From Candidatus Levyibacteriota bacterium (GTDB lineage: Bacteria > Patescibacteriota > Microgenomatia > Levybacterales > UBA12049): a stretch of 64,000 nucleotides of DNA. The DNA lies in the NCBI GenBank assembly GCA_029260905.1, contig JAJDCH010000011.1, positions 512-64,511 of the forward strand. The letters are read 5' to 3'. Both the position numbers and the translations under genes were made by a program. Below, piece after piece: positions 1 through 26,251 of this stretch (positions are counted from its first letter, which is position 1; each line of letters begins with the position of its first letter). The notes below the pieces were generated by a model that searched no databases, was not told the origin of the DNA, and saw only the letters and a program-made list of their open reading frames with translations.

Positions 1-1
1 A

Positions 2-1907: not shown

Positions 1908-1908
1908 A

Positions 1909-2571: not shown

Positions 2572-2655
2572 ATGTTACAATGAATATTGATTTAAGACTT
2601 CTTTGTTCTTCTCACCTCACAAAGTCTTATGTCTTAAGTCTATTTATTATACCTT

Positions 2656-4533
2656 ATGGAAGATCAACTACTCAAGGATTTAAACAAAGAACAACAAGCC
2701 TCAGTACTCCAAACAGATGGCCCGATGATTATTTTGGCTGGAGCAGGATCAGGAAAAACAAGAGTTCTTACATATAAGGTACTCTACCTTATGCTTGAAA
2801 AACAAATTGCGCCTGAGTCAATTTTGATGATTACATTTACCAATAAGGCTGCCAATGAAATGAAAGAGCGCATGGAAAAAATGCTCTCCAGTAAAGTAAA
2901 ATCCAAGAACCAAGAACCAAGAACCAGTGGTAAGCCTTGGATCGCCACTTTTCATTCAATGTGTGCCAAAATCTTAAGAGTTGAGGGTAAGCATCTTGGT
3001 TTTTCTGAAAAATTTGTTATTTATGATTCACAGGATCAGCTAGATGCGATAAAAGAGGCAATGACCAGGCTTGATATTTCTATAAAGGATTTCAAACCCA
3101 GATCTGTCCTATCAACAATATCTGGTGCCAAAAACGAACTAATAACAGCCAATGAGTATCTTAATTTTGCTAAAGGCCATTTTCAAGAGACTGTCTCTAG
3201 AATATATCCTGTTTACCAATCACTGCTCAAAGAGAATGATGCGCTTGATTTTGACGATCTTATTCTCATGACAATCAAACTTTTTCAGGACAATGAGCAG
3301 GTGTTGAAAAAATATCAGTTAAGACTTGAATATATTCTTGTTGATGAATATCAAGACACCAACAGAGCTCAATATATCCTGACCAAACTTCTTACCAAAA
3401 GATGGAAAAATATTTGTGTAGTTGGTGACTTCTCACAAAGCATTTATTCCTGGCGTGGTGCAGACTATCGAAACTTGATGCGTTTTAAAGAAGACTTTCC
3501 AGGAACCAGAACTTTCTCCCTTTCTCAAAACTACAGATCTACTCAAAAAATACTTGATGGAGCAAGTGCTGTTATATCCAAAAACACCTCTCATCCAGTA
3601 CTTAAACTCTGGACAGAAAATCCAGCAGGTTCTGAAATAGATATCTATGAAGCAGAGAATGAGCAAGACGAGGCGGATTTTATTATAAAACATCTTATTG
3701 ATAAGCATGTTGCAAATCTAAATGACATCGCAGTTCTTTATAGAACCAACGCGCAATCCCGTGTGATAGAAGAAGCATTTCTTCATCATGGCATACCATA
3801 CGTATTAATTGGAGGAACAAGATTCTATGAAAGAAAAGAAATAAAAGACGTTCTTTCATACATAAGAGTTGTTGAGAATCCAAAAGATTCTGTCTCATAC
3901 AAAAGAGTTGAAAAATTAGGCAAAAAAAGATTGCAGAAATTCAAAAACTACCAAGAAGAAACCCAAGATCCAAAATCCAAGATCCAAGATCTCAACACCA
4001 TAGATATACTCGATGGAATTATTAAAGCAACCAACTATCTTGATCTGTATGATGAAAAAATTGAAGAAGACAGGGCAAGACTTGAAAATATCAAAGAGCT
4101 TAGATCTGTTGCCATTGCACATCCTGATCTCACAGATTTTCTTGAAAACGTGGCACTGGTTGAGCAGGAATACAATTCAAAAAAAACCACAGAAGGAGAA
4201 ACCAAAAATGCAATTACACTCATGACGCTTCACGGAGCAAAGGGACTTGAGTTCCCAACAGTCTTCATGATCGGAATGGAAGAAGGACTTTTTCCCCACA
4301 GCAGATCACTCATGGATAAAACACAACTAGAAGAAGAGCGACGCCTTTGCTATGTTGGAATGACGCGTGCTAAAGAAAAACTTCTACTGACCTATGCGAG
4401 AAGAAGACTTTTTTTTGGACAAAGAGCAACCAACATGGTATCCCGTTTTGTCATGGAATTACCAGAACATCTAATAAATCAAGGTTTGGAATCAATTGAT
4501 TTAAAAGAAAAAGACCCTGCTGATCTTTTCTAA
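2656..4533 (+). CDS. pcrA: UvrD/PcrA superfamily-1 DNA helicase
   Basis: AGAGSGKT, TFTNKAA, VDEYQD, QNYRS, HGAKGLEF, EEERRLCYVGMTRA. Confidence 0.95.
   Translation: MEDQLLKDLNKEQQASVLQTDGPMIILAGAGSGKTRVLTYKVLYLMLEKQIAPESILMITFTNKAANEMKERMEKMLSSKVKSKNQEPRTSGKPWIATFHSMCAKILRVEGKHLGFSEKFVIYDSQDQLDAIKEAMTRLDISIKDFKPRSVLSTISGAKNELITANEYLNFAKGHFQETVSRIYPVYQSLLKENDALDFDDLILMTIKLFQDNEQVLKKYQLRLEYILVDEYQDTNRAQYILTKLLTKRWKNICVVGDFSQSIYSWRGADYRNLMRFKEDFPGTRTFSLSQNYRSTQKILDGASAVISKNTSHPVLKLWTENPAGSEIDIYEAENEQDEADFIIKHLIDKHVANLNDIAVLYRTNAQSRVIEEAFLHHGIPYVLIGGTRFYERKEIKDVLSYIRVVENPKDSVSYKRVEKLGKKRLQKFKNYQEETQDPKSKIQDLNTIDILDGIIKATNYLDLYDEKIEEDRARLENIKELRSVAIAHPDLTDFLENVALVEQEYNSKKTTEGETKNAITLMTLHGAKGLEFPTVFMIGMEEGLFPHSRSLMDKTQLEEERRLCYVGMTRAKEKLLLTYARRRLFFGQRATNMVSRFVMELPEHLINQGLESIDLKEKDPADLF
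2903..2926 (+). repeat. Heptamer tandem repeat (CCAAGAA)x3+ inside pcrA
   Basis: ccaagaa ccaagaa ccaagaa cca read directly. Confidence 0.9.
3963..3990 (+). repeat. Heptamer tandem repeat (CCAAGAT)x4 inside pcrA
   Basis: ccaagat ccaaaat ccaagat ccaagat. Confidence 0.9.
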
Positions 4534-4558
4534 TCTCCATTTCTGTTAAAATATACCT

Positions 4559-5542
4559 ATGATCGACTTTAATAAAACCGCGACCCACCCTCTTCAATCA
4601 TTTGAATGGGGAGAATTTAGAAAAAAAACAGGAGTCAAAGTAATAAGAGGTGAAAACTTTCAGCTCACAATTCATAAAATCCCACATACGTCTTTTACAA
4701 TTGGCTATCTACCGAAAGGACATATACCAAACAATGAACTAATTGATGAATTAAAAAAAATTGGCAAACAAGAAAACTGCATTTTTATTCAATTGGAACC
4801 AAATATCTTAAAAAGCAATAAACAAAAAGCAATAAACAAAAAGCTTGCTGAGGCCGCGCATCCTCTTTTTACTAAATACAATTTTGTTTTGGATATTACA
4901 AAATCGGAAGAAGAATTATTAAAAAACATGCATCAAAAAGCAAGATACAATATCCGCGTTGCGCAAAAACACAACGTTGAAGTAATTGAAGACAATTCAG
5001 ATAAAGCATTTGCAGAATATCTCAGACTCACTGATGAAACAACAAAACGACAGGGGTTCTTTGCCCACACGCTTGATTATCATAAAAAACAATGGACAAT
5101 CCTACCCCATAAAACTTCAAAAGATAAACTCAGCTCGCATTTACTAATTGCTAAATATCAACCACCAAGATCCAAGAACCAGAATTCAAGATCCAAGATC
5201 TTAACAGCTTGGATCTTATTTATTTTCAAAGACACGCTTTATTATCCATACGGCGCATCGATTAGTCAGCATCGCGAGGTAATGAGTAGTAGTCTTATGA
5301 TGTGGGAAGCAATAAGATTTGGAAAGAAGTTGGGACTAAAAAAGTTTGATATGTGGGGCGCCCTAGGACCAAATCCAGGCAAAAATGATCCGTGGTATGG
5401 ATTCCACAGTTTCAAAGAAAAATATGGTCCAAAACATATTGAATATATAGGAAGTTATGACATGATAATAAACCCTATTGCTTATCAGTTTTATAAACTT
5501 GCAGATAAAGTTCGATGGCTAATATTAAGATTTAGAAAATAA
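4559..5542 (+). CDS. FemAB/FemX family peptidoglycan bridge aminoacyltransferase
   Basis: HPLQSFEWG, KARYNIR, YYPYGAS, FDMWG, GFHSFKEKYG. Confidence 0.9.
   Translation: MIDFNKTATHPLQSFEWGEFRKKTGVKVIRGENFQLTIHKIPHTSFTIGYLPKGHIPNNELIDELKKIGKQENCIFIQLEPNILKSNKQKAINKKLAEAAHPLFTKYNFVLDITKSEEELLKNMHQKARYNIRVAQKHNVEVIEDNSDKAFAEYLRLTDETTKRQGFFAHTLDYHKKQWTILPHKTSKDKLSSHLLIAKYQPPRSKNQNSRSKILTAWILFIFKDTLYYPYGASISQHREVMSSSLMMWEAIRFGKKLGLKKFDMWGALGPNPGKNDPWYGFHSFKEKYGPKHIEYIGSYDMIINPIAYQFYKLADKVRWLILRFRK
5165..5199 (+). repeat. Heptamer tandem repeat (CCAAGAW-like)x5 inside femAB-like gene
   Basis: ccaagat ccaagaa ccagaat tcaagat ccaagat. Confidence 0.88.
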
Positions 5543-6910
5543 ATGAAGAAATTTCTGCCAATCCTAACACTTGTTCTTTTTTTTCTTTTTTTCAAACTTT
5601 CAAACCTTGGCATCAGGCTTTCAGACAGCAATATCTACTTTTACACAGGATACGAAATACTTCAAGGAAAAATTCTTTATAAGGATCTTTTCTTTACCAA
5701 CTTCCCATTTATTCCTTATCTTTCATCGTTGTACTTTTTGATAATTGGTGGAAATCTGAAATTATTTTTTCTAACCCCTGTAATTGAAGTATCCCTTGTT
5801 TCATTTTTTATCTACAAAATTGTCTTTGAGAAATACAAAAAAATATTTATCGCAACTATATCAGCATCTCTTTATCTTTTCTCTTTCATAATCCTTTCAA
5901 CATCAGATCACCAATCAGGAGTATTTTTTGCATCGCTTGCAGCAGTTTTAGCATATTATTTTTATCAAAAAGAAAAATATTTTCTTAGCGGCATATCTAT
6001 CGCAATTACGCTTTTAACAAAAGCGTACTTTATTCCTGTTGCGCTTTCACTTGGTTTTTTATTTTTAATAGATAAGAAATGGAAAAACTTAATAAGATTT
6101 TTGCTTGGTGGATCATCTGCAGGAATTATCATAATGTTGCCAACATTTTTTTTCGCATTTCCAGATTTTATAGATCAAGTTTTTAAATACTCACTTACAA
6201 GATCGCAGGGGGTTGATAAATTAGCTATTATTTGGTTTTTTATCAGACATGATTTTTCGCTTTTTATTTTACTAATCATAAATATTTTTTTAATTAAAAA
6301 GGAAAAATTCTTCGGTTTATTATCTTTTTTCGGAATTATTTTTTTTATTGTATACAAAGACATTTATTATCTTTATCTTAATTTTCTAATTCCTTTTCTT
6401 TGCATTTCTTATGCTGGATTTCATAAAGCAATTCAAGTAAAATTTGATATCCAAAAAGGAATTATCCCTACAGTTCTTTTGCTTTTTATTTTCTATAATT
6501 TTATCTCTTACACTGATGGGTTTAGAAACCTTCAAAAAATTAATAACATAAATCAAATTACGAATAAAATAAAACAGGAAAAGCCAAACGCGCTCTATGG
6601 TACTAATGATATAACAACTGCACTTGCATACCTTTCAAACACCCCACTTCTTAATAATGTTATTGATACAAATTCCAATATTTATAGACAGAGAATTCTT
6701 GATGCAAAAAAGATGACTACTGATGCCATATCCCAAAAATCAATAATAGTTGCTCATGGAGCTTACTATCCATTGGCGGGAATTGAAGAAGTGGTAATTG
6801 ATGAGATTTTTGACAAAGAACAAATAATAAAAAACTGTAAGCTGATAGAAAGCTATCCTGTTCAGATGGAGGGAATTGAAAACAGACTGAATCTATTTAG
6901 GTGCTACTGA
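5543..6910 (+). CDS. Polytopic membrane protein, probable GT-C glycosyltransferase
   Basis: About 10 hydrophobic segments; SDSNIYFY..G..LYKD first-loop motif typical of PMT/ArnT-like proteins. Confidence 0.65.
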   Translation: MKKFLPILTLVLFFLFFKLSNLGIRLSDSNIYFYTGYEILQGKILYKDLFFTNFPFIPYLSSLYFLIIGGNLKLFFLTPVIEVSLVSFFIYKIVFEKYKKIFIATISASLYLFSFIILSTSDHQSGVFFASLAAVLAYYFYQKEKYFLSGISIAITLLTKAYFIPVALSLGFLFLIDKKWKNLIRFLLGGSSAGIIIMLPTFFFAFPDFIDQVFKYSLTRSQGVDKLAIIWFFIRHDFSLFILLIINIFLIKKEKFFGLLSFFGIIFFIVYKDIYYLYLNFLIPFLCISYAGFHKAIQVKFDIQKGIIPTVLLLFIFYNFISYTDGFRNLQKINNINQITNKIKQEKPNALYGTNDITTALAYLSNTPLLNNVIDTNSNIYRQRILDAKKMTTDAISQKSIIVAHGAYYPLAGIEEVVIDEIFDKEQIIKNCKLIESYPVQMEGIENRLNLFRCY

Positions 6911-6933
6911 CAGATTTTAAAAAAATATTTTGT

Positions 6934-7322
6934 TTACCAATTCTTTCCTTCTAAACGCAATGACCTCGCTCTTGCGTCAGATTTATTAATAACATCAGGA
7001 AATAAATATAATTCCCCTGCAATAATATTAGTAGCTAAATCCTTCAACACCTCATCCCAAGTTTTCCCTTCGATTGCTGAAATATCTATATCTTCGGGTT
7101 TCAAGGCTGTTCCATCCATTAGTGCTCTAAGTAGCTCAAAAAGATCGCCAGAAAATCCTTCTACTACCTCGTTCGCAGCATGAAACTCAGAATAAGGCAC
7201 CAAACCAGGTTCTTCTTGTATAAATTCTGTTTCAAAGAATTTTTTCTTGTCTTATCTATGATACGCTCTCTCAAGGGTTTCTCTTTTTCTGGTGGTTTTA
7301 TATCGTTAGGATTATTTTCCAT
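6934..7322 (-). pseudogene. Hypothetical acidic protein, apparently frameshifted in an A6 run
   Basis: ATG at 7322 (MENNPNDIKPPEKEKPLRERIIDKTRK) joins the 89-aa ORF frame (KFFETEFIQEEPGLVPY...) if one A is added near 7240-7245. Confidence 0.55.
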
Positions 7323-7402
7323 AATATGGAAATACTATGGCATGAGGTGAAAATCTTTGCAACAACGATTTATTAAATATCAACGAACTTCTTTAGCATA
7401 AA

Positions 7403-7930
7403 CTATATTTTAGGTATTTCGTAAACATAAACCTCGCTCTCTTCATCACTTGCAATCATCGGTAGATCTATTTTATAGACAAAGGTTACCACTCTGGTTC
7501 CAGGTTTTAGCTCTTTCAAAAACTTTATCTTTAAGCGAGAAAGAGTTTTGGGAATAAGATATGCAAAGACAACTGTTGCCTCTGATAAATCAACATCAAA
7601 AAAGTTCTTTCTTTTAAATCTTAATTTATCTGAAACTCCGAAAAATCTTGCAAGTATTTTTGAAAACCAAAATCGTGATAAATCAACTTCTATCCCTACC
7701 CCAGTTGCTCCATATTCTCTTGCTGCAATACAAAGCGCTGTTCCATCCCCTGAACCCATATCATAAATAATATCCTTATCATTTATCTTTGCGAGTTCAC
7801 ACATTATTCTTGCCGTTTTTTTATTTGTTCTCCACCACGGAGACCACGGACTATCAACTGGCCAAACCATTGAGAAAAGAAACAAAAGCAAAATAATTGT
7901 AACTGTGACTATTAAAAATACCAACATCAA
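7403..7930 (-). CDS. Class I SAM-dependent methyltransferase with N-terminal TM
   Basis: YDMGSGDG, GIE, ELKPGTRVV. Confidence 0.88.
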   Translation of the reverse strand: MMLVFLIVTVTIILLLFLFSMVWPVDSPWSPWWRTNKKTARIMCELAKINDKDIIYDMGSGDGTALCIAAREYGATGVGIEVDLSRFWFSKILARFFGVSDKLRFKRKNFFDVDLSEATVVFAYLIPKTLSRLKIKFLKELKPGTRVVTFVYKIDLPMIASDEESEVYVYEIPKI

Positions 7931-8529
7931 TTTCCTTTCTCAGCAAGAGAATTTGCAAGTCTATCTGCACGCTCATTATTTACATCACCTGAATGTCCCA
8001 ATACCTTTTCATACATTACCTGCAGATTATTCTCAGCAATCAAATAATCTATCTTTTCAAAAATTTCTCTATTTTCTTTTATCTTATTTACAGATTTTTT
8101 GAGATTATTTATAGAAATCTGACTATCAGAATAAATTTTTATTCTTTTGTGATTTTTTTGTGATGCCCATAAAAGCGCGTGGTAAATTGCATACGCCTCA
8201 GCAGTATTATTTGTTTGTTTTCCAATTACCCGTCCTGCTTCCTCATATTTTCCAGCTACAAATGCCCAGGCAGCTTTAGCATGTTCATAACCATTTCCCG
8301 TGCAGGCTCCATCTGTCCAAATTTCAACTTCCGGAACACCTAAAAAACCTAAATTTTCAAACAAAAATTGATCTTTGTTAATTACCTTAAATTTCTCATC
8401 GTGATAAAGCCTTTTACATTTTGCACAAAAATAGTAAGCTTTATAGTAATAACTTTTCTTTAGTTGCTCAGGACTTTTTTTCGTTGCCTTCTCAATCAAT
8501 ACTCCCCTACAGTACTTACAAATATTCAT
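7927..8529 (-). CDS. rnhA: Ribonuclease HI with N-terminal C4 zinc-ribbon
   Basis: WTDGAC, TNNTAEA, SDSQ, GHSG..NERADRLA; N-terminal CKYC...CAKC. Confidence 0.9.
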   Translation of the reverse strand: MNICKYCRGVLIEKATKKSPEQLKKSYYYKAYYFCAKCKRLYHDEKFKVINKDQFLFENLGFLGVPEVEIWTDGACTGNGYEHAKAAWAFVAGKYEEAGRVIGKQTNNTAEAYAIYHALLWASQKNHKRIKIYSDSQISINNLKKSVNKIKENREIFEKIDYLIAENNLQVMYEKVLGHSGDVNNERADRLANSLAEKGN

Positions 8530-8544
8530 AAATATCTAAGAAGA

Positions 8545-10686
8545 TTATATCATGATTTTTCCATTTTTTACTTTTGGTTCAATTTCAGCACCTGGTTTTA
8601 TCGATCCTTCAATTATTCTTGTTGCTATCTCGTCAACTAACCTTTCATCAATTGCCCTCTTCAGGGGTCTTGCGCCAAAAACAGGATCATATCCAACTTC
8701 GGCAAAATAAATACTCAGATCATCTGTTATCTTCATATTTATACCATTCTCACTCATCCTCTCTTTTACCCGCTCCAATTGTAATTCTGCAATTTTGATA
8801 AGATCTTTGGGAGAAAGATTGTTATATGTAACAATTGAATCAAGCCTATTTAAAAATTCAGGTTTAAAATGCTGATGAAGAATTTCATTTATTTTTTTAT
8901 CAATACTGTCTTTATCGCTTTCCTCTTTCAAAATATCTCCGCCAAGATTACTAGTCATAATTATAATTGTATTTCTAAAATCAACTTTTACACCTTTACT
9001 ATCAGTCAGCATCCCTTCATCAAATATCTGGAGAAAAAGATTAAACACTTGAGGATGAGCCTTCTCTATTTCATCAAAAAGAATAACGGAATATGGCTTT
9101 CTGCGAACTGCCTCTGTTAACTGCCCACCTTCTTCATAGCCAACATATCCGGGAGGCGCACCAATCATTCGCGCAACGCTATGATTTTCCATATATTCAC
9201 TCATATCAATTCTTGTCAGGGCGTGCTCATTATTAAAAAGTATTCTTGCTAAGGTTTTTGCAGTTTCTGTTTTACCAACACCTGTTGGACCAAGAAAAAG
9301 GAAAGAACCAATCGGCTTGTCTCTTGCAGAAAGACCTGATCTTGATCTGCGAACAGCTCTTGCCACCAAATTAACAGCCCTGTCTTGACCTATTACTTGT
9401 TTTTTTAGTTCCTCATCAAGCTTTAAAAGCCTATCTGATTCAGTAGAAAGCACTTTGCTTACAGGTATCCCAGTCCAGCGCGCAACCACTTTTGCTATAT
9501 CTTCAGCATCAACCTCTTCCCTTAAAACCTGTTCGTCTGTTGGAATTTTGCTCCACTCATTCATTAACTCATTCAATCTCTTCTCAATCTCAGGAATTTT
9601 TCCATATTTTATTTCAGCCGCTTTTTGAAGATCAACATTACGCTCTGCTTCCTGAAGCTCTATCCGATATGTATCAATTTTTGCTCTCATGTCTTGCACT
9701 TTTTGAATTATTTCTTTTTGTTTTTTCCATCTCTTTTCAAGCGTACTTGCTTCTGCTTTTAATTTTTCAAGTTCTTTTTCTTGTGTCTCTTTTCTACTCT
9801 TAGAGATTTCACTTTTTTCTTTTTTCAATGCAGCAAGTTCTATCTCAATTTGTGTTATTTTTCTTTTCAATAGATCAAGTTCAGCCGGCATACTTTCTGT
9901 TTCAATTTTTATTGCAGCTGCTGCTTCATCTATAAGATCAATTGCTTTATCTGGTAAAAATCTTTGAGGAATATATTGCGCCGAAAGCTTGGCCGCTTGA
10001 ATAATTGCATTATCAGTTATACGAATCCCGTGGTGCAACTCATACTTTTCTTTAATTCCTCTCAAAATAGAAATAGTATCCTCAATTGTTGGCTCATCTA
10101 TAAGAACAGGCTGAAAACGTCTTGCAAGTGCTGGATCTTTTTCAATATACTTCCTATACTCACCAACTGTTGTCGCGCCTATCATTTTAAGCGCTCCACG
10201 AGCAAGTGCAGGCTTTAGCATATTTGCTGCATCAACAGATCCCTCGCTTGATCCTCCACCAACAAGTGTATGAAGCTCATCAATAAACATAACATATTTT
10301 CCATCTGCATCCTCTACAGCCTTTACAAGACTCTTTAGTCTTTCTTCAAATTCTCCCCTAAATTTTGCACCAGCCAAAAGCTGTGCAAAATCCAAAACAA
10401 GCACTTCCTTTTCTTTAAGAGGTGTTGGCACATTTTTTTCAAAAATTTTTTGAGCAAGTCCTTCAACTATTGCAGTCTTACCCACCCCTGGATCACCGAT
10501 AAGAACTGGATTATTCTTTGTGCGTCTTGAAAGTATCTCCATTATTCGCCTTATCTCAACCTCACGACCAATAACAGGATCAATTTTGCCACTATTTGCA
10601 AGATCAGTTAGATTAATTGTGAATTTTTTAAGCGCTTCATCAGGTGACACAGGCCTTAAAAAATCTATTGCTTGATTGTTGTTCAT
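8545..10686 (-). CDS. clpB: ClpB disaggregase lacking the N-terminal domain
   Basis: Two AAA+ modules ([16 protein letters not shown]), M-domain [15 protein letters not shown]; 713 aa starting at NBD1. Confidence 0.92.
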
Positions 10687-10692
10687 GGGGAT

Positions 10693-10728
10693 ATTTTATA
10701 ATTAGCAGTAGAAGTTGTCAAGTGCTAA
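10693..10728 (-). promoter_or_regulatory. Sigma70 promoter of clpB overlapped by a CIRCE-like (HrcA) inverted repeat
   Basis: Minus strand TTGACA-17-TAAAAT-6-ATG; TTAGCACTT-N9-TACTGCTAA at 10702-10728 versus CIRCE TTAGCACTC-N9-GAGTGCTAA. Confidence 0.82.
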
Positions 10729-10743
10729 ATCGAAAGGTGTTTT

Positions 10744-10827
10744 CTATACTTTTCCTGAAAGTACCACATTAAATGACTCAAAAACGACATTCATTTTTTG
10801 TTCAAAAAAACTTAAAATTTTTTTCAT
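10744..10827 (-). CDS. Small 27-aa ORF MKKILSFFEQKMNVVFESFNVVLSGKV
   Basis: Strong SD AAGGAGGTGA 7 nt upstream; below the ORF-track cutoff. Confidence 0.55.
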   Translation of the reverse strand: MKKILSFFEQKMNVVFESFNVVLSGKV

Positions 10828-10846
10828 AATTTCCTCACCTCCTTTT

Positions 10847-10951
10847 GGTAGGTTGTGTCATTAACTGGGCGTTAACTTAATTTCTCTGTCCTGCCCTTTT
10901 TTGCTCCGGGATAGCAACGTTTCGCTCCAGAATGGCATTTTGAAACCTACC
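10847..10951 (-). ncRNA. Candidate structured leader or ncRNA upstream of the 27-aa ORF
   Basis: GC-enriched; closing stem GGTAGGTT/AACCTACC, internal TGCC..GGCA arm, TTAAC-GCCCA-GTTAA hairpin; no family recognised. Confidence 0.4.
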
Positions 10952-18077: not shown

Positions 18078-18722
18078 CTATTTACTCTCTCCCTGCGCCT
18101 CTTCTATTAATTTCTTGAGGTTTGTCGGGATTGGATTCTTCTTTAGAAGCTTTGCCATGTAAGTTGTATTGTGGACAAGAAATCGCAAAGTTTTATTGGT
18201 ATATAAATGCTTTTCTCCACCTGCGTCTATATAGGAGGGTCCAGGTCCTGCAGGTCCAACCCAATAAGTATCGACATTGGGTGGAACTACACATCCCAAG
18301 TGAGTTAAGTTAAATAAAGTATTGGCTGCAACATCATGCGCGCCGTCTTCATTACCTGTTACGATACATCCTGCAACTTTGTTATATAATGGAAATTGCC
18401 CAGTCTTTTTGTTTCCTTCTGCATATGTTCCATCCAGTCGTTCAATAACAAGTTGTGCAACGGATGAACGGACACCAAACCAAATTGGAGCAGCGATAAC
18501 AATGATATCGCAAGCTTTAATTTTCACCAAAATCTTTGGCCACTCATCACCTTCGCCTTCATAAGAAGATACACCAAATGGAATATTGAAATCAACAACA
18601 CGGATAACATCTGACTCAACATCCAATTTTTTGTACTCCTTCACAACCTTTTTGATCAGCGCTTCGGTATTTGAAACTTTTGGAGATTTTTTGAGAGTAC
18701 AATTTAAAATTACTGCTTTCAT
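18078..18722 (-). CDS. Flavodoxin-like NAD(P)H-dependent oxidoreductase
   Basis: NCTLKKSP..SNT, PIWFG, VTGNEDGAH. Confidence 0.82.
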   Translation of the reverse strand: MKAVILNCTLKKSPKVSNTEALIKKVVKEYKKLDVESDVIRVVDFNIPFGVSSYEGEGDEWPKILVKIKACDIIVIAAPIWFGVRSSVAQLVIERLDGTYAEGNKKTGQFPLYNKVAGCIVTGNEDGAHDVAANTLFNLTHLGCVVPPNVDTYWVGPAGPGPSYIDAGGEKHLYTNKTLRFLVHNTTYMAKLLKKNPIPTNLKKLIEEAQGESK

Positions 18723-19705
18723 AACAATCCCATTTTCTTTTTTACTTCTTCAACTGTTTCTCTGGCAATTTCAGATGCTTTTTTGTTTCCATCTTTTATG
18801 ATCTGATCAACCACATCAGGATTCTCTTCAAAATATTTTCTTTTTTCTTGAAATGGCTTTAACTCAGCAAAAATAGCATCAGCCAAAACCTGCTTCATGT
18901 CAGAATATCTGATTCTTTTTTCCCGATAATCTATAACAAATTTTACGAAAATTTCTTTGTCGACAAAAAGCTTAAGTAATGTAAATAAATTTCCAACCCC
19001 ACCTGTTTCTGGAATATTGCCACCTTCCAGGCCGCTATCAGTTGGCGCTTTGGCAAGCTTTGATTTTATAGTCGCCAAATCATCTATCAAGTTTATGAAA
19101 CTCCCCTCAATGCTTTTACTCATCTTCCCTTCACCAAGAAGTGATGGGACGTATTGACCTGGTGTTTTAAACCTTTTGGGTTCTGGAAAATAAGTACCAA
19201 AATCCTGATTCATACGACGCGCGATTTCTCTTACTACCTCAATATGTGGCTCTTGATCAAGACCAACAGGTATACTGTCTGCTTTATAAACCAAAATATC
19301 TGCTGCCATCAGAACTGGATAATTAAGTAACGCTATTGTGACATTTTCTGGATGTTGTTTTACCTTTTCTTTAAAAGTTGGAAGATGCTGCATCTTGGCA
19401 ACTGTCATAACGGTTGAAAAAAGATAAGCAAGTTCTATGTGATACGGATTTGAGCTTTGCTGAAAAAGAATACTTTTCCCATGATCAAGTCCTGCTGCTA
19501 GATAATCAATTATAATCTCGCGTCTATTTTTACGCAGCTCCTCCACATCATACGGCGTTGTCAAAGTATGAAGATCGGCAACCATATAAAGAGTTTCATA
19601 ATCAGAGTTATCCTGCAACTCAAGCATGCCTTTTATTGCACCGAGATAATTCCCCAGATGGAGTCTGCCATTTGCTCTTATTCCTGAAAGTACTCTTTTT
19701 TTCAT
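18719..19705 (-). CDS. trpS: Tryptophanyl-tRNA synthetase
   Basis: HLGN, YPVLMAADI, VG.DQ, KMSKS. Confidence 0.96.
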   Translation of the reverse strand: MKKRVLSGIRANGRLHLGNYLGAIKGMLELQDNSDYETLYMVADLHTLTTPYDVEELRKNRREIIIDYLAAGLDHGKSILFQQSSNPYHIELAYLFSTVMTVAKMQHLPTFKEKVKQHPENVTIALLNYPVLMAADILVYKADSIPVGLDQEPHIEVVREIARRMNQDFGTYFPEPKRFKTPGQYVPSLLGEGKMSKSIEGSFINLIDDLATIKSKLAKAPTDSGLEGGNIPETGGVGNLFTLLKLFVDKEIFVKFVIDYREKRIRYSDMKQVLADAIFAELKPFQEKRKYFEENPDVVDQIIKDGNKKASEIARETVEEVKKKMGLL

Positions 19706-19706
19706 A

Positions 19707-20789
19707 TTATAAATTCTGCGCTTTATGTCGCAAATAATGATCCATTATGACTAGTGCCGACATCGCATCAACTATTGGTACAGCTCTTGGCAAAACGCAT
19801 GGGTCATGACGTCCCGCAGCGCTAAGCGTTACCTCTTTTTTATTTTTGCTTACTGTTTGCTGTTCCTTTTTTATCGTTGAAACAGGCTTAAAGGCAACTC
19901 TAAAATGAATCGTCTCGCCATTTGAAATACCTCCTGTTACTCCCCCTGAATTATTTGAACTGGTTCTTATTTTTCCATCTTCAATCTTAAAAGGATCATT
20001 GTGCTGACTACCTCTTAATTTTGTCCCTTCAAATCCTGATCCTATCTCAAATCCCTTAACAGCATTAATGCTAAGCATAGCTTTCCCAAGATCTGCACTG
20101 AGCTTATCAAAAACAGGCTCACCAAGACCAACTGGCACATTTTTGATAACTCCTCTTATAGCCCCTCCTATTGAGTCTCCATCTTCTTTTACATCCTCGA
20201 TAAGCGAGATCATCTCCTCTGCTTTTTCAGGATCAGGACAACGGATGATATTTGCTTCAACATCCTCCATTGAGACATTTTCAAAATCAATATCTGTTCT
20301 GATATTACCAACACTTTCAACATAGCTAATTATTTCAACGCCTAATTTCTTATACAAATATTTTTTTGCAATCACACTTGCAGCAACGCGCGCTAAGGTC
20401 TCTCTTGCAGATGCGCGACCCGATCCTCTCCAATCACGAAAACCATATTTTGCCTCATATGTATAATCTGCATGAGATGGACGATACACATCCTTTAGCT
20501 CTATATAATCATCTGATTCAAATTCCTGATTGAAAGCAATAACAAGAATTGGTGTTCCAGTTGTCTTTCCTTCAAAAACACCTGAAAGGATTTTAACAGT
20601 ATCTGATTCTTTTCTTGGTGTAGTAATCTTACTTTGTCCTGGTCTTCTTCTGTCCTGCTCTTTCTGGATTTCTTCCTCTGTTATCTCAATTCCAGGAGGG
20701 CAACCATCAACAACCACTCCCACGCCACCGCCATGCGATTCTCCAAAAGTTGTTATTCTAAATAAATGTCCAAATGTATTTCCAGCCAT
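19707..20789 (-). CDS. aroC: Chorismate synthase
   Basis: [27 protein letters not shown]. Confidence 0.97.
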
Positions 20790-20806: not shown

Positions 20807-21487
20807 TCAGGAATTATGAATTATGGAAAACACCTTTTCCATATCATCTTTTGTAAGTTGTCCTTCTGCCGATTGCTCGTCCAAGGTCTTCGGCACAAAA
20901 ACCATTTCATTTCCATATAGTGTTCCAAAAATTCTTGTCAGCAAACTTTTTTCACCCATTCCCAAAATAATATGCTTAATATTTTTATCCCGCAACTCCA
21001 AACCCAAATCCAAAAGCCTAATTGCGTCTTTTTCTGTTTTACAAAATGTTGATATTTTTACAATGTTTGGACTGTGCTGATCCATTGTATCAATTATTTC
21101 ACTCAATTTCTTGCTTTCTGGAGTTTCCTCATAATTATGATACGAAATAATTTTTTTAATTTTTAAATTATTATCTTTTATGTGCTCCAACTCCTCTTTT
21201 TGTGCTATATCAATATCAAGCATCGCATCGGTGTCTTCCAGAAATGAAACAATCTCAAGCCTTTTCTCAAGATTTATCTGTATTGGCTCCAGATTTTTCC
21301 TCCTGAAAAGAATTATCAATTTTTCTCTCAATTCCTCACTCAATTGACTAATAAAATTAGTATCAATCTTATCAACATAATCAATCCAGACTTCAAAAAA
21401 ATCATACTCGTGTTTGTGTTTTGAAATCATTTCCAACACATCATCTTTTGAATTTTTAATAATTGGCAAACAATAATTTATTTTCAT
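20807..21487 (-). CDS. aroD: Type I 3-dehydroquinate dehydratase
   Basis: ISYHNYEETP, IVKI, LGMGE..TR, SAEGQL; operon context. Confidence 0.88.
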   Translation of the reverse strand: MKINYCLPIIKNSKDDVLEMISKHKHEYDFFEVWIDYVDKIDTNFISQLSEELREKLIILFRRKNLEPIQINLEKRLEIVSFLEDTDAMLDIDIAQKEELEHIKDNNLKIKKIISYHNYEETPESKKLSEIIDTMDQHSPNIVKISTFCKTEKDAIRLLDLGLELRDKNIKHIILGMGEKSLLTRIFGTLYGNEMVFVPKTLDEQSAEGQLTKDDMEKVFSIIHNS

Positions 21488-21490
21488 ATT

Positions 21491-22318
21491 TTATTCTTCT
21501 CTTAATGCTTCAAGGAGTGCGTCTCGCATAATTTTTTCTGGTGCTTCAACTCCCGTATACATCCTGAACTGTTCAATTCCCTGGTGAAGAAGCATCTCAG
21601 AACCATACACGATTTTTGCGCCCTTTTTATTTGCATTTTTCAACAGTTTTGTTTCGTGTGGATTGTAGACTGCATCTAAAACGATATGTTTTTTCTCAAT
21701 CAAATTTTCAGGAAGAAAGAGTTTATCCACTTCAGGACTCATTCCAACAGATGTCATATTCAAAATAATATCTATTTCTTTTATTTTTTCTACATCCGTT
21801 AAAGGAAAGTATTCACAGTCAAAATCCTCAGCAAGTTTTTTTGCTTTTTCTACTGTCCTATTAAAAATGCTTACCCTTGCTCCTTTTTTGATAAGTCCGT
21901 AAACAGCAGCCCTTGCAGCACCACCTGCTCCCAAGACAGCCGCTTTTTTCCCGTTAATTTCTGTCACATTTTTAAGAGAATTTACAACGCCAAGCCAGTC
22001 AGTATTGTACCCTGTTAATCTTCCATTATCGTTCACAACCGTATTTACTGCTCCAATTTCTTTTGCGGTATCATCTATATTATCCAAAAAATTCATTATT
22101 TCCTGTTTGAAAGGAATTATCACACTCACCCCTCTTATCTGCATCGCTTTTACTCCCTTCACAAAATCTTCCAAGTCCTCTATCTTCAGACTTGCTGAGA
22201 GGTAAACAAAGTCAAGTCCCAGTTCCTGATATCCTGCATTATGCATAATAGGTGACATTGATTTCCTGCCTAACCCTCCAATATTCATACATATTTTTGT
22301 GCTTGATGTTATTTTCAT
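21491..22318 (-). CDS. aroE: Shikimate dehydrogenase
   Basis: SMSP.MHN, PFK, GAVNT, GYNTD, GAGGAARA. Confidence 0.95.
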   Translation of the reverse strand: MKITSSTKICMNIGGLGRKSMSPIMHNAGYQELGLDFVYLSASLKIEDLEDFVKGVKAMQIRGVSVIIPFKQEIMNFLDNIDDTAKEIGAVNTVVNDNGRLTGYNTDWLGVVNSLKNVTEINGKKAAVLGAGGAARAAVYGLIKKGARVSIFNRTVEKAKKLAEDFDCEYFPLTDVEKIKEIDIILNMTSVGMSPEVDKLFLPENLIEKKHIVLDAVYNPHETKLLKNANKKGAKIVYGSEMLLHQGIEQFRMYTGVEAPEKIMRDALLEALREE

Positions 22319-22809
22319 TATTTTATTTTTACTACTATATCCTCTACTACTTCATCAACTTTTTTATCATCGGTTGAGATTTCAAAATCTGCATATTTAT
22401 TATACAAAGCTTTACGCAAATCATACAGCGCTTTTGCTTTTTCCTTATTTTCAAAAAGAGGACGCGGAATCTTTGGATTGATTCTTTTTAGAACTGTTTC
22501 AAAACTTGCAGTAAGCGCAACTATCAAAGAGTTCTTTTTCAGATTTTTAACATTCTCATCTCTCATAACCACACCACCACCAGTCGAGATTACACCCTTG
22601 GTTGTGTCTCTCAGATCAGCACAAACTTTAGATTCATATTTCCTAAAAAGCTCTTCACCACCAATTTCAAAAATTTCTTCAATACTCATACCTGCCTTCT
22701 TAACAATCAAATCATCCATCTCGATAACATGCGTATCAAGTCTTTTGACAAGAACTTGTGCTACTGTACTTTTACCAGTTCCCATAAATCCTATCAAAAC
22801 TATTTTCAT
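22318..22809 (-). CDS. aroK: Shikimate kinase
   Basis: GFMGTGKS, FR.YE, STGGG, RPL. Confidence 0.94.
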   Translation of the reverse strand: MKIVLIGFMGTGKSTVAQVLVKRLDTHVIEMDDLIVKKAGMSIEEIFEIGGEELFRKYESKVCADLRDTTKGVISTGGGVVMRDENVKNLKKNSLIVALTASFETVLKRINPKIPRPLFENKEKAKALYDLRKALYNKYADFEISTDDKKVDEVVEDIVVKIK

Positions 22810-24089
22810 ATTTCTTCCTCCTCTATTTTAATTCCTATTTCTTTTAATTTTTTCCAAAAATCAGGAAATGATTTGCTAACAACTTCTGGATTATTTATAG
22901 TTATTCCATCAATTTTTGTACCCGCAACAGCAAAACTCATCGCCATCCGATGATCTCCATATGTATCAATTGCTGCTGATTTTGGGACACCGCCATGGAT
23001 AATAATTGAATCTTCAGTTGTATTTGTTTTAATTCCCATTTTTGCCAATTCTTCCTCAACTGCTTTTACCCTTTCTGTTTCTTTATGTCTTAAAGTCTTA
23101 ATTCCTGTTATTTTTGTATCACCTTTTGCAAACGCAGCAAGCACAGAAAGGGTTTGAGCCTGATCGGGACAATTGTTCATATTTATATTAATTGGTGATA
23201 TTCCCTTGCCTACAATTGTTATCTCTTGTTCTCCAAAATTAATCTCCTGCCCCATCTTCTCAAGAATTTTTAAAAAATTTATATCCGCTTGGACTGATTT
23301 GGGATTAACATTTTTAACTGTAATTTTTGATTTGGTAAGCGCTGCAATTGCAAAAAAATACGACGCGCTTGAAAGATCTGTTTCAACTAAATATGAATTA
23401 GCATCATATTCATTACCCAAAATCAAATATTCTCTATAATTATTATTTAAAACTTCAATTCCAAATTGATTCAAAATATCAATTGTCATATCAACATATG
23501 ACTTTGAAACCTGCTCATTTTTTACATTAATTTTTTCAATCCCTGCAATAGGCGCAATCATAAGAAGCGAACTTAAATACTGGCTACTCAAACTTCCGTT
23601 TATGCTTATTTCTTTTTTACCCAGATCTGCTGATACAACACTTACAGGCGGAAATCCTTTTTCTCCAAGATAATCTATCTTTGCGCCAAGTTCTCTCAAT
23701 GCATCCACCTCATCACCAATCGGTCTCTTATTTAGCCCTTCAAGTCCATAAATCTTTTTAACGCCTGGCACTATTATTGAAAGTGCTAGAATAAATTTCA
23801 GAGTAATTCCAGAAAGACTTGCATTTAAATTATAACTACCTTCCTTGACATCTCTTATATCACCAACAACTTCAACAGAATCTTCTTCTTCAACAATTTT
23901 TATTCCCAGAGATTTCAAGCAAAAAATCATTGCTTTTGTGTCATCACTGATCAGCGGGTTTAAAATCACAACTGGCTTTTTTGTAAGTGTTGCCAAAAGC
24001 AAAGCTCTTATTGTATAGCTTTTTGATGAAGGTATATTAATTGATGAATCAATTGATTCTCTGAGCGGATGTATTGTAATTTTTTTCAT
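22806..24089 (-). CDS. aroA: EPSP synthase
   Basis: PSSKS..R, SSQY.S, LRHKETER, DHRMAM, KSFP. Confidence 0.95.
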   Translation of the reverse strand: MKKITIHPLRESIDSSINIPSSKSYTIRALLLATLTKKPVVILNPLISDDTKAMIFCLKSLGIKIVEEEDSVEVVGDIRDVKEGSYNLNASLSGITLKFILALSIIVPGVKKIYGLEGLNKRPIGDEVDALRELGAKIDYLGEKGFPPVSVVSADLGKKEISINGSLSSQYLSSLLMIAPIAGIEKINVKNEQVSKSYVDMTIDILNQFGIEVLNNNYREYLILGNEYDANSYLVETDLSSASYFFAIAALTKSKITVKNVNPKSVQADINFLKILEKMGQEINFGEQEITIVGKGISPININMNNCPDQAQTLSVLAAFAKGDTKITGIKTLRHKETERVKAVEEELAKMGIKTNTTEDSIIIHGGVPKSAAIDTYGDHRMAMSFAVAGTKIDGITINNPEVVSKSFPDFWKKLKEIGIKIEEEEI

Positions 24090-25165
24090 TTTGCCACATA
24101 GGATAAAGTTTTTTTTAAATTTTCGTCCGAAACATTTCTATCATAGACTCCCACCCCAATATTTTTTAACAATGTAAAATTAATTTTTGTAAATTCATTT
24201 TTTTTATCAGACTTCATTTTTTCAATTAAATTTTCGATCTCAAAACCAGATACACCTGTAGGAAGTCCTGCGTCAATAATCGCTGTTTCAATCTTTTCAA
24301 ACTCCTCCTGAGTTAGCAAGCTCTCGAGCACAGACAACTTGGCCTCAGCCACCATACCTATACTTATCGCTTCACCATGAAGTAAAGGATTTAAGGTCTC
24401 AAGACTCAGTGCCTCAAACGCATGACCTATCGTATGACCAAAATTCAAAAGCTTTCTTAACCCCATTTCATTTTCATCAGAAACAATAATCTCTTTTTTT
24501 ATCTCTATTGATCTATAAATCAGATCAACCAATTCTTCTTTGTCAAAACCTTTTAAAGATTTTGCAGTCACTTTTTCAAAATAATCCTTATCTTTAATAA
24601 GACCGTGTTTTATAATCTCTGAAAAACCTGACAAAAACTCTCTCTCTGGAAGACTGTCCAAAAAATTTACATCTATAATCACACTCATTGGTTGAATAAA
24701 TGTTCCAATTAAATTCTTAATATTCCCAAAATCAATTCCTGTTTTACCACCCACACTTGCATCAACCATTGACAAAAGAGTAGTTGGAATATTTAAGAAA
24801 TCAATTCCCCGCATATATGTACCTGCGGCAAATCCTCCCATATCGGTAATTACTCCCCCTCCCAGATTTATGACAAGTGATTTACGGTCAAATCTGTTCT
24901 CCAGAAGCGTCTTCCAGATTATTTCAATTGACTTAATGTTTTTTGATTTTTCACCTGATGCAAGAATTATGGAAACAGAATCTTTTGGCAAAACCAATAA
25001 TAATCTATCAAGAAAAAGCGACTTTATGTTCTCATCGGTTATTACTGCAATCTTTGAATATTGTGAAAGATCAACAACTGCTGAGAGCTTCTCAATAAGT
25101 CCCTTATCTACAAAAATCCCGTACTGACTTTGTCTGTTCAAAATGGTTATTGTTATTTGTTTCAT
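24086..25165 (-). CDS. aroB: 3-dehydroquinate synthase
   Basis: GGGVITD, PTTLL..VDASVGGKT, LNFGHTIGHA, LLHGEA. Confidence 0.95.
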   Translation of the reverse strand: MKQITITILNRQSQYGIFVDKGLIEKLSAVVDLSQYSKIAVITDENIKSLFLDRLLLVLPKDSVSIILASGEKSKNIKSIEIIWKTLLENRFDRKSLVINLGGGVITDMGGFAAGTYMRGIDFLNIPTTLLSMVDASVGGKTGIDFGNIKNLIGTFIQPMSVIIDVNFLDSLPEREFLSGFSEIIKHGLIKDKDYFEKVTAKSLKGFDKEELVDLIYRSIEIKKEIIVSDENEMGLRKLLNFGHTIGHAFEALSLETLNPLLHGEAISIGMVAEAKLSVLESLLTQEEFEKIETAIIDAGLPTGVSGFEIENLIEKMKSDKKNEFTKINFTLLKNIGVGVYDRNVSDENLKKTLSYVAK

Positions 25166-25166
25166 A

Positions 25167-26096
25167 TTATTCACCAAGCTTTAAGAAATAACTGTTTATT
25201 TTCGAAACACTTAAAAGCTTTTTCCTAGATAGTTTTCTCTTGTAATTTTTTATCTCAGAACCTGTTGGAATTGCAGAAACATTTCCAACCCGCCTACATT
25301 GCATTGCAGCAATAGAGTTGGCAAATCCTGCAGAATCTCTCAAGCTCCACTTCTTTATTATACCGTATGTGAATGCGCCTCTGTATATATCTCCTGCTCC
25401 AGTTGTATCAACTACCGATACCATTCTTGCCGGTATAAGATCGGTGTTTTCTCCATCATAAATAATGCTTCCAAGCTCACCCAAGGTAATGACAAAAGCC
25501 TTGCCACAGATTTTATACAAACAATTGAGACAAGAGCTAAAATCACGCTTGTTACAAAAGTTAGCAATTGAGTCAATTGGAATAATTGGATAGTCAGCAT
25601 GCCTCATCATATCTTTTACAAAGCTAGTTACCTCGGTTGAGGGATCTATTATTATCTTCGCTGATTGCTTTTTGTTTTTTACTATTTCATAAAAAGCCTT
25701 TCTCTCATGTCTGTCGATAATAATAAAATCAAATTGCTCAATAAATTTCTTTTCCATCTTTTCAATTGCTCTATGCTTTACTGGTCCTCTTATTTTTTTT
25801 CTTTGCCCTGAAATCGGATCAATTAAAATTGTGTTTACTTTAGTGTTATTTTGAAGATTATTAATCGTTTTTATTTTTTCCTCCTTCAAGGTATTAATTA
25901 TCATCTCTCCCTCAGAATCATTTCCAACACTAGTTAGAAATGTACAATCTATCCCAAGTCGTGAAAGTAGAATCATTGATGTCAAAACAGGACCACCGAT
26001 ATTTCTTTTTTCTGTCTGCTCTTTTGCGCCTACAAAAAAGATATTATCTATAACTGATTCTCCAATTCCAAGTATTTTCATATTTGTTTTTGACAT
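25167..26096 (-). CDS. PfkB/ribokinase family carbohydrate kinase, first gene of the aro operon
   Basis: GGP..T...LSRLG, VGND..G, ITLGELG, DTTGAGD. Confidence 0.88.
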   Translation of the reverse strand: MSKTNMKILGIGESVIDNIFFVGAKEQTEKRNIGGPVLTSMILLSRLGIDCTFLTSVGNDSEGEMIINTLKEEKIKTINNLQNNTKVNTILIDPISGQRKKIRGPVKHRAIEKMEKKFIEQFDFIIIDRHERKAFYEIVKNKKQSAKIIIDPSTEVTSFVKDMMRHADYPIIPIDSIANFCNKRDFSSCLNCLYKICGKAFVITLGELGSIIYDGENTDLIPARMVSVVDTTGAGDIYRGAFTYGIIKKWSLRDSAGFANSIAAMQCRRVGNVSAIPTGSEIKNYKRKLSRKKLLSVSKINSYFLKLGE

Positions 26097-26124
26097 AAAA
26101 AAACCTCCCTATTTATGGGAGGTT
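26097..26124 (-). terminator. Attenuator terminator; its 3' arm contains the pfkB SD
   Basis: AACCTCCC-ataaata-GGGAGGTT followed by a U run immediately before the ATG. Confidence 0.85.
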
Positions 26125-26160: not shown

Positions 26161-26211
26161 CTAGGAAGTAAAGTAAAACCAAATCTTGACTAGTTGCTGA
26201 ATATTTTTCAT
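26161..26211 (-). CDS. Aromatic amino acid leader peptide MKNIQQLVKIWFYFTS
   Basis: 16 codons with tandem TGG TTT TAC TTT; stop overlaps the antiterminator GGGAGGT. Confidence 0.85.
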   Translation of the reverse strand: MKNIQQLVKIWFYFTS

Positions 26212-26222
26212 ATGACTTTCAG

Positions 26223-26251
26223 ATTATAAACCTACCTGCCTCAAAAATCAA
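26223..26251 (-). promoter_or_regulatory. Sigma70 promoter of the leader-pfkB-aro operon
   Basis: TTGATT-17-TATAAT. Confidence 0.8.

Follow-up and report, generated by a model that had tools for sequence, protein, structure and literature searches.

The stretch of DNA considered here (the window; 64,000 nt) belongs to a Candidatus Levyibacteriota genome of 954 kb (G000; 17 contigs, 94.9% complete), and carries on its minus strand an operon for the synthesis of aromatic amino acids. The first gene of this operon, pfkB (pfkB1; 25167..26096, minus strand), encodes a YihV-like kinase of 309 amino acids from the PfkB/ribokinase superfamily (PF00294), which is predicted to be a sedoheptulose-7-phosphate 1-kinase. 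It precedes aroB, aroA, aroK, aroE, aroD, aroC and trpS, and stands behind a leader-peptide attenuator with a run of Trp, Phe, Tyr and Phe codons (W-F-Y-F). The source organism of the operon is an ultra-small bacterium of the candidate phyla radiation (CPR).

The operon is part of a longer co-directional run on the minus strand, in which a trpR-like gene and trpE, G, D, C, F, B and A (32966-26260) are followed by a gap of 163 nt, and then by pfkB, the aro genes, trpS and a flavin mononucleotide (FMN) reductase gene that ends at 18078. Next to pfkB lies aroB for 3-dehydroquinate (DHQ) synthase (24086..25177, minus strand; TIGR01357, 362 bits against a cut-off of 305). The stop codon of pfkB ends at position 25167 and the first ATG of aroB, its probable start, is at 25165, leaving a gap of 1 nt; the longest aroB open reading frame (ORF), from a TTG at 25177, would overlap pfkB by 11 nt. 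The genes that follow on the same strand encode 5-enolpyruvylshikimate-3-phosphate synthase (aroA, 22806..24089; PF00275, 370.5 bits), shikimate kinase (aroK, 22318..22809; PF01202, 140.6 bits), shikimate dehydrogenase (aroE, 21491..22318; Pfam score well above its cut-off), type I dehydroquinase (aroD, 20807..21487; PF01487, 115.4 bits) and chorismate synthase (aroC, 19707..20789; PF01264, 465 bits), and the Pfam scores of all five are far over the respective cut-offs. The initial annotation of the window had listed steps 2-7 of the shikimate pathway as complete, with pfkB ending 1 nt before aroB; the family matches for all six enzymes and the coordinates agree with this.

At the tail of the operon, trpS for tryptophanyl-tRNA synthetase begins 1 nt after aroC (18719..19705, minus strand; PF00579, 192 bits), and overlaps by 4 nt with a gene of the NADPH-dependent FMN reductase family (18078..18722, minus strand; PF03358, 60 bits). 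The latter may supply the reduced FMN needed by chorismate synthase. Aminoacyl-tRNA synthetase genes also stand at the end of another aromatic operon, where pheS follows tyrA/pheA (L033:12927-13964).

The same annotation had noted that the window holds no gene for 3-deoxy-D-arabino-heptulosonate 7-phosphate (DAHP) synthase, the first enzyme of the pathway, and had read the kinase as part of an undescribed entry route in its place. The window does indeed lack such a gene. However, a whole-genome search located the sole PF00793 match of the genome on contig 6 (295 bits), in an ORF that covers positions 2-342 of 342 in the TIGR00034 profile with 510 bits, where 173 is the cut-off, and that encodes a full-length DAHP synthase of class I-alpha. 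The class II enzyme (PF01474) had no match in this genome. Members of the DeoC family of aldolases, which would include the archaeal ADH synthase, were absent from 5/5 genomes, in a search that did not extend to DHQ synthase II. Given the canonical enzyme on contig 6, the pathway has all its steps and DAHP synthase is not replaced by the kinase, so the proposal that this enzyme is missing from the genome was rejected. An aro operon without a DAHP synthase gene need not mean that the step is absent.

Leader-peptide attenuator

Attenuator control of the first gene had been proposed, and the gap of 163 nt between trpA and pfkB has the corresponding anatomy. Directly past the trpA stop codon is a promoter-like site, TTGATT-17-TATAAT (26223..26251, minus strand), which agrees with the consensus at 10/12 positions; promoter-like sites found by this consensus scan are no commoner in the region than in shuffled sequences, and the site is therefore a candidate. 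It is followed by an ORF of 16 codons for a leader peptide, MKNIQQLVKIWFYFTS (26161..26211, minus strand), with consecutive Trp-Phe-Tyr-Phe codons, and then by a terminator-like hairpin of 8 pairs, 5 of them G-C, with a T-run (26097..26124, minus strand). The 3′ arm of this hairpin, GGGAGG, is also the Shine-Dalgarno sequence, or ribosome-binding site, of pfkB.

Secondary structure prediction of the leader (176 nt) gave a fold with z = -2.48, in which the leader stop codon sits within a first hairpin. When the leader was masked through a ribosome stall at the Trp codon, the minimum-energy fold brought the upstream segment GGGAGGUAG into pairing with the terminator's 5′ arm. Under masks that reached further, to the Phe, Tyr or second Phe codon or to the stop codon, the terminator re-formed, and the antiterminator was predicted solely for the mask ending before CCUAGGGAGG. 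This simple folding model is consistent with attenuation, although it lacks precision. The parts of an attenuator are thus present in the gap: tandem regulatory codons in a short ORF, a terminator hairpin followed by a U-run and, as a prediction, an alternative antiterminator pairing.

Conservation of the leader provides a strong argument for attenuation. In 20/22 orthologue loci examined, pfkB has before it a leader of 21-25 residues that is rich in Tyr, Phe and Trp and contains runs like YFWFYFTS (..YFWFYFTS/P..), and an aromatic leader also precedes pfkB in genome G225. A relative without pfkB (G002) has an aromatic leader directly in front of aroB. The presence of leader and terminator before pfkB, with the leader conserved across these 20 loci, ties the kinase to the demand for aromatic amino acids. 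No aromatic leader was found before the unlinked class I-alpha DAHP synthase gene of G000. The possibility of a riboswitch or T-box in the gap was rejected, since an Rfam search of the whole operon returned no family at gathering score.

In the trp, pheA and pheST attenuators of Escherichia coli, tandem codons for the amino acids that exert the control lie in a short ORF, a terminator comes after it and an alternative pairing is available; the arrangement in the window shares all of these elements. In contrast to the E. coli examples, the window leader joins codons for Trp, Phe and Tyr, stands before genes of the common (shikimate) pathway and occurs in a CPR bacterium. It also differs from them in that the 3′ arm of the terminator doubles as the ribosome-binding site of the first gene.

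Linkage of the kinase gene to DAHP synthase and aldolase genes

Orthologues of the kinase were surveyed in one-genome-per-species collections, of close relatives and of genome contigs, and in metagenome contigs. At least 151 homologues were found at E < 1e-20, 45-56% identical to the kinase, and their names are either generic or the automatic Joint Genome Institute (JGI) name 'sulfofructose kinase'. Among 60 close relatives of the source organism, four carry an orthologue (46-51% identity). The genome contigs hold 23 orthologue loci (41-54% identity; next matches ≤29%), four of which are the same contigs as those of the four relatives.

In these 23 genome loci, pfkB is adjoined by a DAHP synthase gene in 21, and the other two loci stop at a contig edge. 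The usual order is leader, pfkB, DAHP synthase, aroB, aroA, aroK, aroE, aroD, aroC, chorismate mutase, aminotransferase and tyrA/pheA. The metagenome contigs hold a further 20 loci, some of them probably from the same organisms as the genome loci, in which pfkB is followed by a DAHP synthase gene (15 loci), an aldolase gene (one), the contig end (three) or an unrelated context (one). In relatives, then, the kinase is accompanied by a neighbouring DAHP synthase gene and not, as might have been expected from the initial annotation, by absence of the enzyme. That annotation was right in a positional sense when it placed the kinase 'where DAHP synthase is expected', as the DAHP synthase gene lies between pfkB and aroB in relatives. 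It had also named two findings that would together tell against its proposal, a canonical DAHP synthase elsewhere in the genome and a lack of conserved pfkB-aro linkage; the former holds, whereas the latter fails, as the linkage is strongly conserved. In the full-text library searched, there was no paper linking a PfkB kinase to DAHP synthase or aro operons, and none on transaldolase or shikimate supply in CPR bacteria.

Two kinds of synthase partner the kinase. One is an ordinary class I-beta enzyme of 252-262 residues (95 bits). The other, which in many relatives always comes after pfkB, is a divergent protein of ~320 residues that scores under the cut-off of the Pfam family DAHP_synth_1 and keeps the GPC, K-S-R-T/S, HRG and DP(S/T)H motifs; examples are L011:8419-9375, L013:9054-10028 and L014:8245-9210, with DAHP_synth_1 scores of 20 bits, none and 23 bits, respectively. 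This protein is probably a divergent subfamily of class I-beta DAHP synthases. The window is therefore the unusual case: the adjacent I-beta synthase is gone, its reaction falls to the I-alpha enzyme encoded elsewhere, and pfkB has come to lie against aroB.

One explanation that would fit this abutment is that the kinase phosphorylates 3-deoxy-D-arabino-heptulosonate (DAH) at C7, yielding DAHP, the substrate of AroB, and thereby salvages scavenged or dephosphorylated DAH. Translation of pfkB and aroB is coupled in the window, where DAHP synthase is unlinked; a homologue with 54% identity (L104) stands near a gene for an AroB-related sugar-phosphate cyclase; PfkB proteins include 2-keto-3-deoxygluconate (KDG) kinases, to which there are weak NCBIfam matches (47 and 34 bits); and the basic pocket described below could hold a carboxylate equally well. 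However, a DAHP synthase gene lies between or beside pfkB and aroB in 36/43 orthologue loci, so DAHP is made directly there. The protein is nearer to YihV and ribokinases than to KDG kinases by both sequence and fold, the kinase is retained in genomes that lack AroB to AroC, and a DAH kinase leaves unexplained both the FBP aldolase gene between kinase and DAHP synthase and the anticorrelation with transaldolase. We regard phosphorylation of DAH as very unlikely.

The aldolase gene in question encodes a class II fructose-bisphosphate (FBP) aldolase. L021 reads trpA, leader, pfkB (7989-8945), aldolase (8942-9784; 205 bits), class I-beta DAHP synthase (9781-10569) and aroB (10566-), and from pfkB to aroB the genes are joined by consecutive overlaps of 4 nt. 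This aldolase is the only FBP aldolase match found in its genome. In L118, from a different organism, pfkB is again followed by a class II FBP aldolase gene (229 bits; 53% identical to the aldolase of L021), after which the contig ends. From the order kinase, aldolase, DAHP synthase, the expected product of the aldolase would be erythrose 4-phosphate (E4P), and that of the kinase sedoheptulose 1,7-bisphosphate (SBP).

Kinase fold and predicted sugar site

Membership of the kinase in the superfamily is clear, with a PF00294 score of 121.6 bits (cut-off 25.8) over residues 8-278 of 309. Both G34-G35 and the GXGD motif (G233-A234-G235-D236) are invariant among 20 orthologues. The AlphaFold2 (AF2) model (pLDDT 89.8) shows an alpha/beta domain with a beta-sheet lid, and Foldseek aligned it with YihV and ribokinases at TM scores of 0.75-0.80, the top matches being the YihV structures 7agk and 7ag6 (0.78-0.80). 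E. coli YihV is also the nearest solved relative by sequence (phmmer E 7e-19; hhalign probability 99.5% over the full length, 24% identity). The kinase passes no equivalog cut-off in NCBIfam, and its top match there is ribokinase (TIGR02152, 100 bits against 299.65).

YihV is described as phosphorylating 6-deoxy-6-sulfofructose at C1, after which an aldolase cuts the product to dihydroxyacetone phosphate (DHAP) and an aldehyde (PMC8006165). Its sulfonate ligands are given there as K27 (in trans), N109 and R138, its sugar ligands as D13 and S95, and its catalytic residue as D244; the same source names a TR motif as recognition element for a 6-phosphate, and, for Pfk-2, Arg88 and an 'RRS triad' (PMC8006165). 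In our alignments, invariant D17 of the kinase corresponds to D13 of YihV, a sugar ligand, and invariant D236 to its catalytic D244. N88, which is N or H within the family, aligns with S95, invariant R103 with N109, and invariant H130, beside the likewise invariant R129, with R138 of YihV and S139 of Pfk-2. The RRS triad of Pfk-2 we take to be R90-R105-S139. An invariant T85-K86 pair aligns (MAFFT) with the TR motif, T89-R90 in Pfk-2 and T90-R91 in FruK, with Lys in place of Arg, and invariant K101 aligns with R105 of Pfk-2.

The kinase therefore resembles YihV in its conserved sugar ligand and catalytic Asp. Its predicted reaction is analogous too: a ketose bearing an anion at its far end would be phosphorylated at C1, and an aldolase would then release DHAP. 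The kinase differs from YihV in having a T-K motif where YihV has S-S and Pfk-2 and FruK have T-R. Nor does it retain the sulfonate triad K27-R138-N109; the hairpin that carries K27 in YihV is shorter in the kinase, and this residue cannot be aligned. With Pfk-2 and FruK it shares the superfamily and the catalytic GXGD motif, and T85-K86 aligns with their TR motif, as K101 does with R105 of Pfk-2. In contrast, hhalign to E. coli Pfk-2 spans just 64 C-terminal residues, and the matches to TIGR03168 (37 bits, cut-off 216) and TIGR03828 (42.6 bits, cut-off 292) are far under the cut-offs. At the positions by which related kinases bind a distal sulfonate or phosphate, the predicted sugar site is more positive than that of YihV, and it fits a ketose phosphate; this assignment is weakened by the lid-region alignment to YihV and Pfk-2, which rests on ~20% identity. 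A basic site alone does not separate sedoheptulose 7-phosphate (S7P) from fructose 6-phosphate (F6P) or a sugar acid.

The ribokinase score and the automatic name 'sulfofructose kinase' raise the question of whether the substrate could be a neutral sugar, such as erythrose or erythrulose, which would give E4P directly, or else ribose, a nucleoside or sulfofructose. In the latter cases the kinase would be tied to the pathway only loosely or through regulation. Phosphorylation of erythrose would also account for the complementary distribution of kinase and transaldolase described below. However, the ribokinase match is far under its cut-off, and a sulfofructose substrate is at odds with the loss of the triad and with the neighbouring genes: no sulfoquinovose or sulfoglycolysis genes, such as those for the SQ isomerase, SFP aldolase and SLA reductase clustered with YihV, are present in the operon, where the neighbours are aro and trp genes including trpS, and pfkB is accompanied by DAHP synthase and aro genes in the orthologue loci. 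A ribose 1-phosphate kinase serving RuBisCO-dependent salvage to phosphoenolpyruvate (PEP) by way of ribose 1,5-bisphosphate was rejected, as RuBisCO was found in 0/5 genomes. An anionic substrate is favoured by the invariant residues that surround the predicted sugar site (K86, R99, K101, R103, R129 and H130), and a neutral-sugar kinase leaves the aldolase in the operon unaccounted for. A neutral substrate thus seems improbable.

Proposed role in erythrose 4-phosphate supply

The source of E4P and the balance of the pentose phosphates in genome-reduced CPR bacteria that have neither transaldolase nor a classical phosphofructokinase (PFK) are an open point of metabolic reconstructions. Among the source genome and its 60 relatives, transketolase is found in 61/61 genomes and a PfkA-type PFK (PF00365) in 0/61, and transaldolase and chorismate synthase are each found in 13. 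The source genome itself has no match to transaldolase (PF00923) at its completeness of 94.9%. A class-wide sample of 301 genomes added 20 with aroC, 15 of which have transaldolase. This gives 33 genomes with aroC in all (13 of the 61 plus 21 of the 301, with G000 counted once). The kinase orthologue occurs in none of the 22 that have transaldolase, and in five of the 11 that lack it (G000, G005, G017, G026 and G225, from two families of the Genome Taxonomy Database, GTDB). A further 19 kinase-bearing genomes were reached via the orthologue loci, and one of them has transaldolase, which makes 1/25 overall. Within the 60 relatives (G000 excluded), transaldolase is commoner in those with aroC (7/12) than in those without (6/48), and it looks as if transaldolase in this clade is kept mainly for E4P supply. 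The idea that transaldolase fills the operon slot of the kinase in kinase-less genomes with aro genes was rejected, as aroC and transaldolase are on separate contigs wherever both were located (G003, G010, G013, G019, G032, G038 and G040).

The other enzymes of a route to E4P by way of S7P were examined in kinase-bearing genomes. In the five examined in detail, FBP aldolase is always present, as class I in G000, G015 and G017 and as class II in G005 and G026, and so are Rpe and RpiB, which in G000 are both encoded on contig 16. Contig 13 of G000 carries a split transketolase and the class I FBP aldolase. Among 20 additional kinase-bearing genomes, six have a class I aldolase; five of the class I-negative ones were tested for class II, with two clear matches, two weak ones and none in G070.

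In our view the balance tips slightly towards the kinase being an ATP-dependent S7P 1-kinase that, together with FBP aldolase, supplies E4P to DAHP synthase. Transketolase would make S7P, the kinase would phosphorylate it at C1 with ATP to give SBP, the FBP aldolase of the genome would cleave SBP to DHAP and E4P, and DAHP synthase would use the E4P. Shortage of Phe, Tyr or Trp would turn the module on via the leader peptide. The kinase may therefore take the place of the missing transaldolase in a manner regulated by demand, as a 'step 0' of aromatic synthesis rather than a replacement of DAHP synthase. Here S7P as substrate, phosphorylation at C1 and the action of FBP aldolase on SBP are inferred from genomic context and alignment. 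The initial annotation had offered three options. The conversion of S7P to SBP followed by aldolase is favoured because of the aldolase gene beside the kinase in two loci, the distribution complementary to that of transaldolase and the basic pocket of phosphosugar-kinase type; its other two options, a DAH kinase and an erythrose kinase, explain the data less well.

A bypass of transaldolase through SBP, catalysed by PFK and FBP aldolase, is described as established in Entamoeba and cellulolytic clostridia (PMC7029132; PMC12203962). The route proposed here shares with that of Entamoeba histolytica and cellulolytic clostridia the presence of transketolase and FBP aldolase, the lack of transaldolase and the sequence from S7P via SBP to E4P and DHAP. 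The kinases of those organisms are described as members of the PfkA (Rossmann-like) superfamily, mostly dependent on pyrophosphate (PPi) and reversible, and serving general interconversion of pentoses and hexoses. In contrast, the window kinase comes from the ribokinase (PfkB) superfamily, which is not homologous to theirs; it presumably uses ATP and works in one direction, and its gene is a cistron of an aro operon under aromatic attenuation. What is new relative to the known bypass is therefore the kinase superfamily and the regulatory and genomic setting.

A general F6P 1-kinase akin to Pfk-2, completing glycolysis and possibly acting on both F6P and S7P, would explain some of these observations too; its placement in an aro operon would then serve the supply of PEP or triose, or be historical. 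PF00365 is found in 0/61 genomes, yet FBP aldolase is present; the adjacency of kinase and aldolase also resembles a PFK-FBP aldolase pair; the TR-like motif and the basic residues suit any ketose phosphate; and the S7P-active PFKs described in PMC7029132 use F6P as well. Against this, the orthologue was seen solely in the company of DAHP synthase or aro genes and behind an aromatic leader, and attenuation by Phe, Tyr and Trp would be unexpected for a housekeeping PFK. Many aro-less relatives that have FBP aldolase and no PFK are also without the orthologue, which only four of the 60 possess. Nor does an F6P kinase predict the transaldolase complement in genomes with aro genes (0/22 against 5/11), and G000 has a second PfkB protein beside an aldolase. 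A general F6P kinase is therefore unlikely.

Several observations weigh against an S7P 1-kinase. The genomes are related to one another and, being metagenome-assembled, incomplete, so that the phyletic counts are non-independent and suggestive rather than a statistical test. Six of the 11 genomes with aroC and without transaldolase also lack the kinase (G002, G008, G271, G309, G311 and G369), and among them is the relative with the highest aroC identity among those with aro genes (G002, 83%), which has neither pfkB nor the I-beta synthase and carries an I-alpha-like synthase elsewhere. Neither class of FBP aldolase was found in G070, the matches in G074 and G225 are weak, and nine genomes were not tested for class II. 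Transketolase can already make E4P from F6P and glyceraldehyde 3-phosphate, and a phosphoketolase of G000 (XFP_N 457 bits, 934-aa frame; contig 10: 66228-67295) could make it from F6P; since both can supply E4P, the kinase is not strictly needed. The second PfkB paralogue of G000 (contig 13: 18270-19253, minus strand; L100:13271-14254) is convergent with the class I aldolase gene, and could be the kinase that feeds the aldolase; it has 327 residues, is 24% identical to the aro-linked kinase and matches no equivalog.

Two gene contexts are also difficult to accommodate. The best metagenome match, the homologue with 54% identity in L104 (metagenome contig, 1-10933), lies in an unrelated cluster without DAHP synthase, together with the AroB-related sugar-phosphate cyclase (TIGR04425, 369 bits), two acetolactate-synthase-like thiamine pyrophosphate (TPP) enzymes, a short-chain dehydrogenase/reductase (SDR), an aminotransferase of aromatic type and a DmpFG-like aldolase/dehydrogenase. 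Moreover, eight of the 25 kinase-bearing genomes (G015, G069-G074 and G079) have no chorismate synthase match. All eight keep the arrangement leader, pfkB, DAHP synthase, chorismate mutase, aminotransferase and tyrA/pheA (loci L024, L027, L028, L031, L033, L035 and L040 in G015, G069-G072, G074 and G079), and G015 also lacks AroA, its sole PF00275 match being MurA-like. In these genomes DAHP has no known consumer, which an S7P 1-kinase leaves unexplained. The aroC-less genomes with the kinase retain both ends of aromatic synthesis and lack the shikimate core between them.

A wider proposal would take in these genomes as well, and we consider it evenly poised: a dedicated ribokinase-superfamily S7P 1-kinase and an aldolase would form a 'step 0' that replaces transaldolase, is cotranscribed with DAHP synthase and is switched on through the leader by shortage of Phe, Tyr or Trp, and the subgroup that has lost aroB to aroC may make DAHP for exchange with a host, the pathway being split between symbiont and host. 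Should S7P prove to be the substrate, the ribokinase superfamily would have its first S7P kinase. Such an activity would represent a natural precursor supply built into an aromatic amino acid operon, a strategy that metabolic engineers imitate by overexpression of transketolase, and would correct the JGI label 'sulfofructose kinase' on part of a family of at least 151 homologues (E < 1e-20).

Some further features of central carbon metabolism were noted in these genomes. Phosphoketolase is also present in G005, G017 and G002, and would provide a transaldolase-independent pentose route. The cluster around the second PfkB gene of G000 includes the split transketolase, a glycerate-2-kinase-like gene and an FAD-linked oxidase gene. 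In this transketolase (contig 13: 11483-13778; L100:6484-8779), the genes for the N- and C-terminal parts are split by a gene for a '23S rRNA intervening sequence protein' of 117 residues (PF05635).

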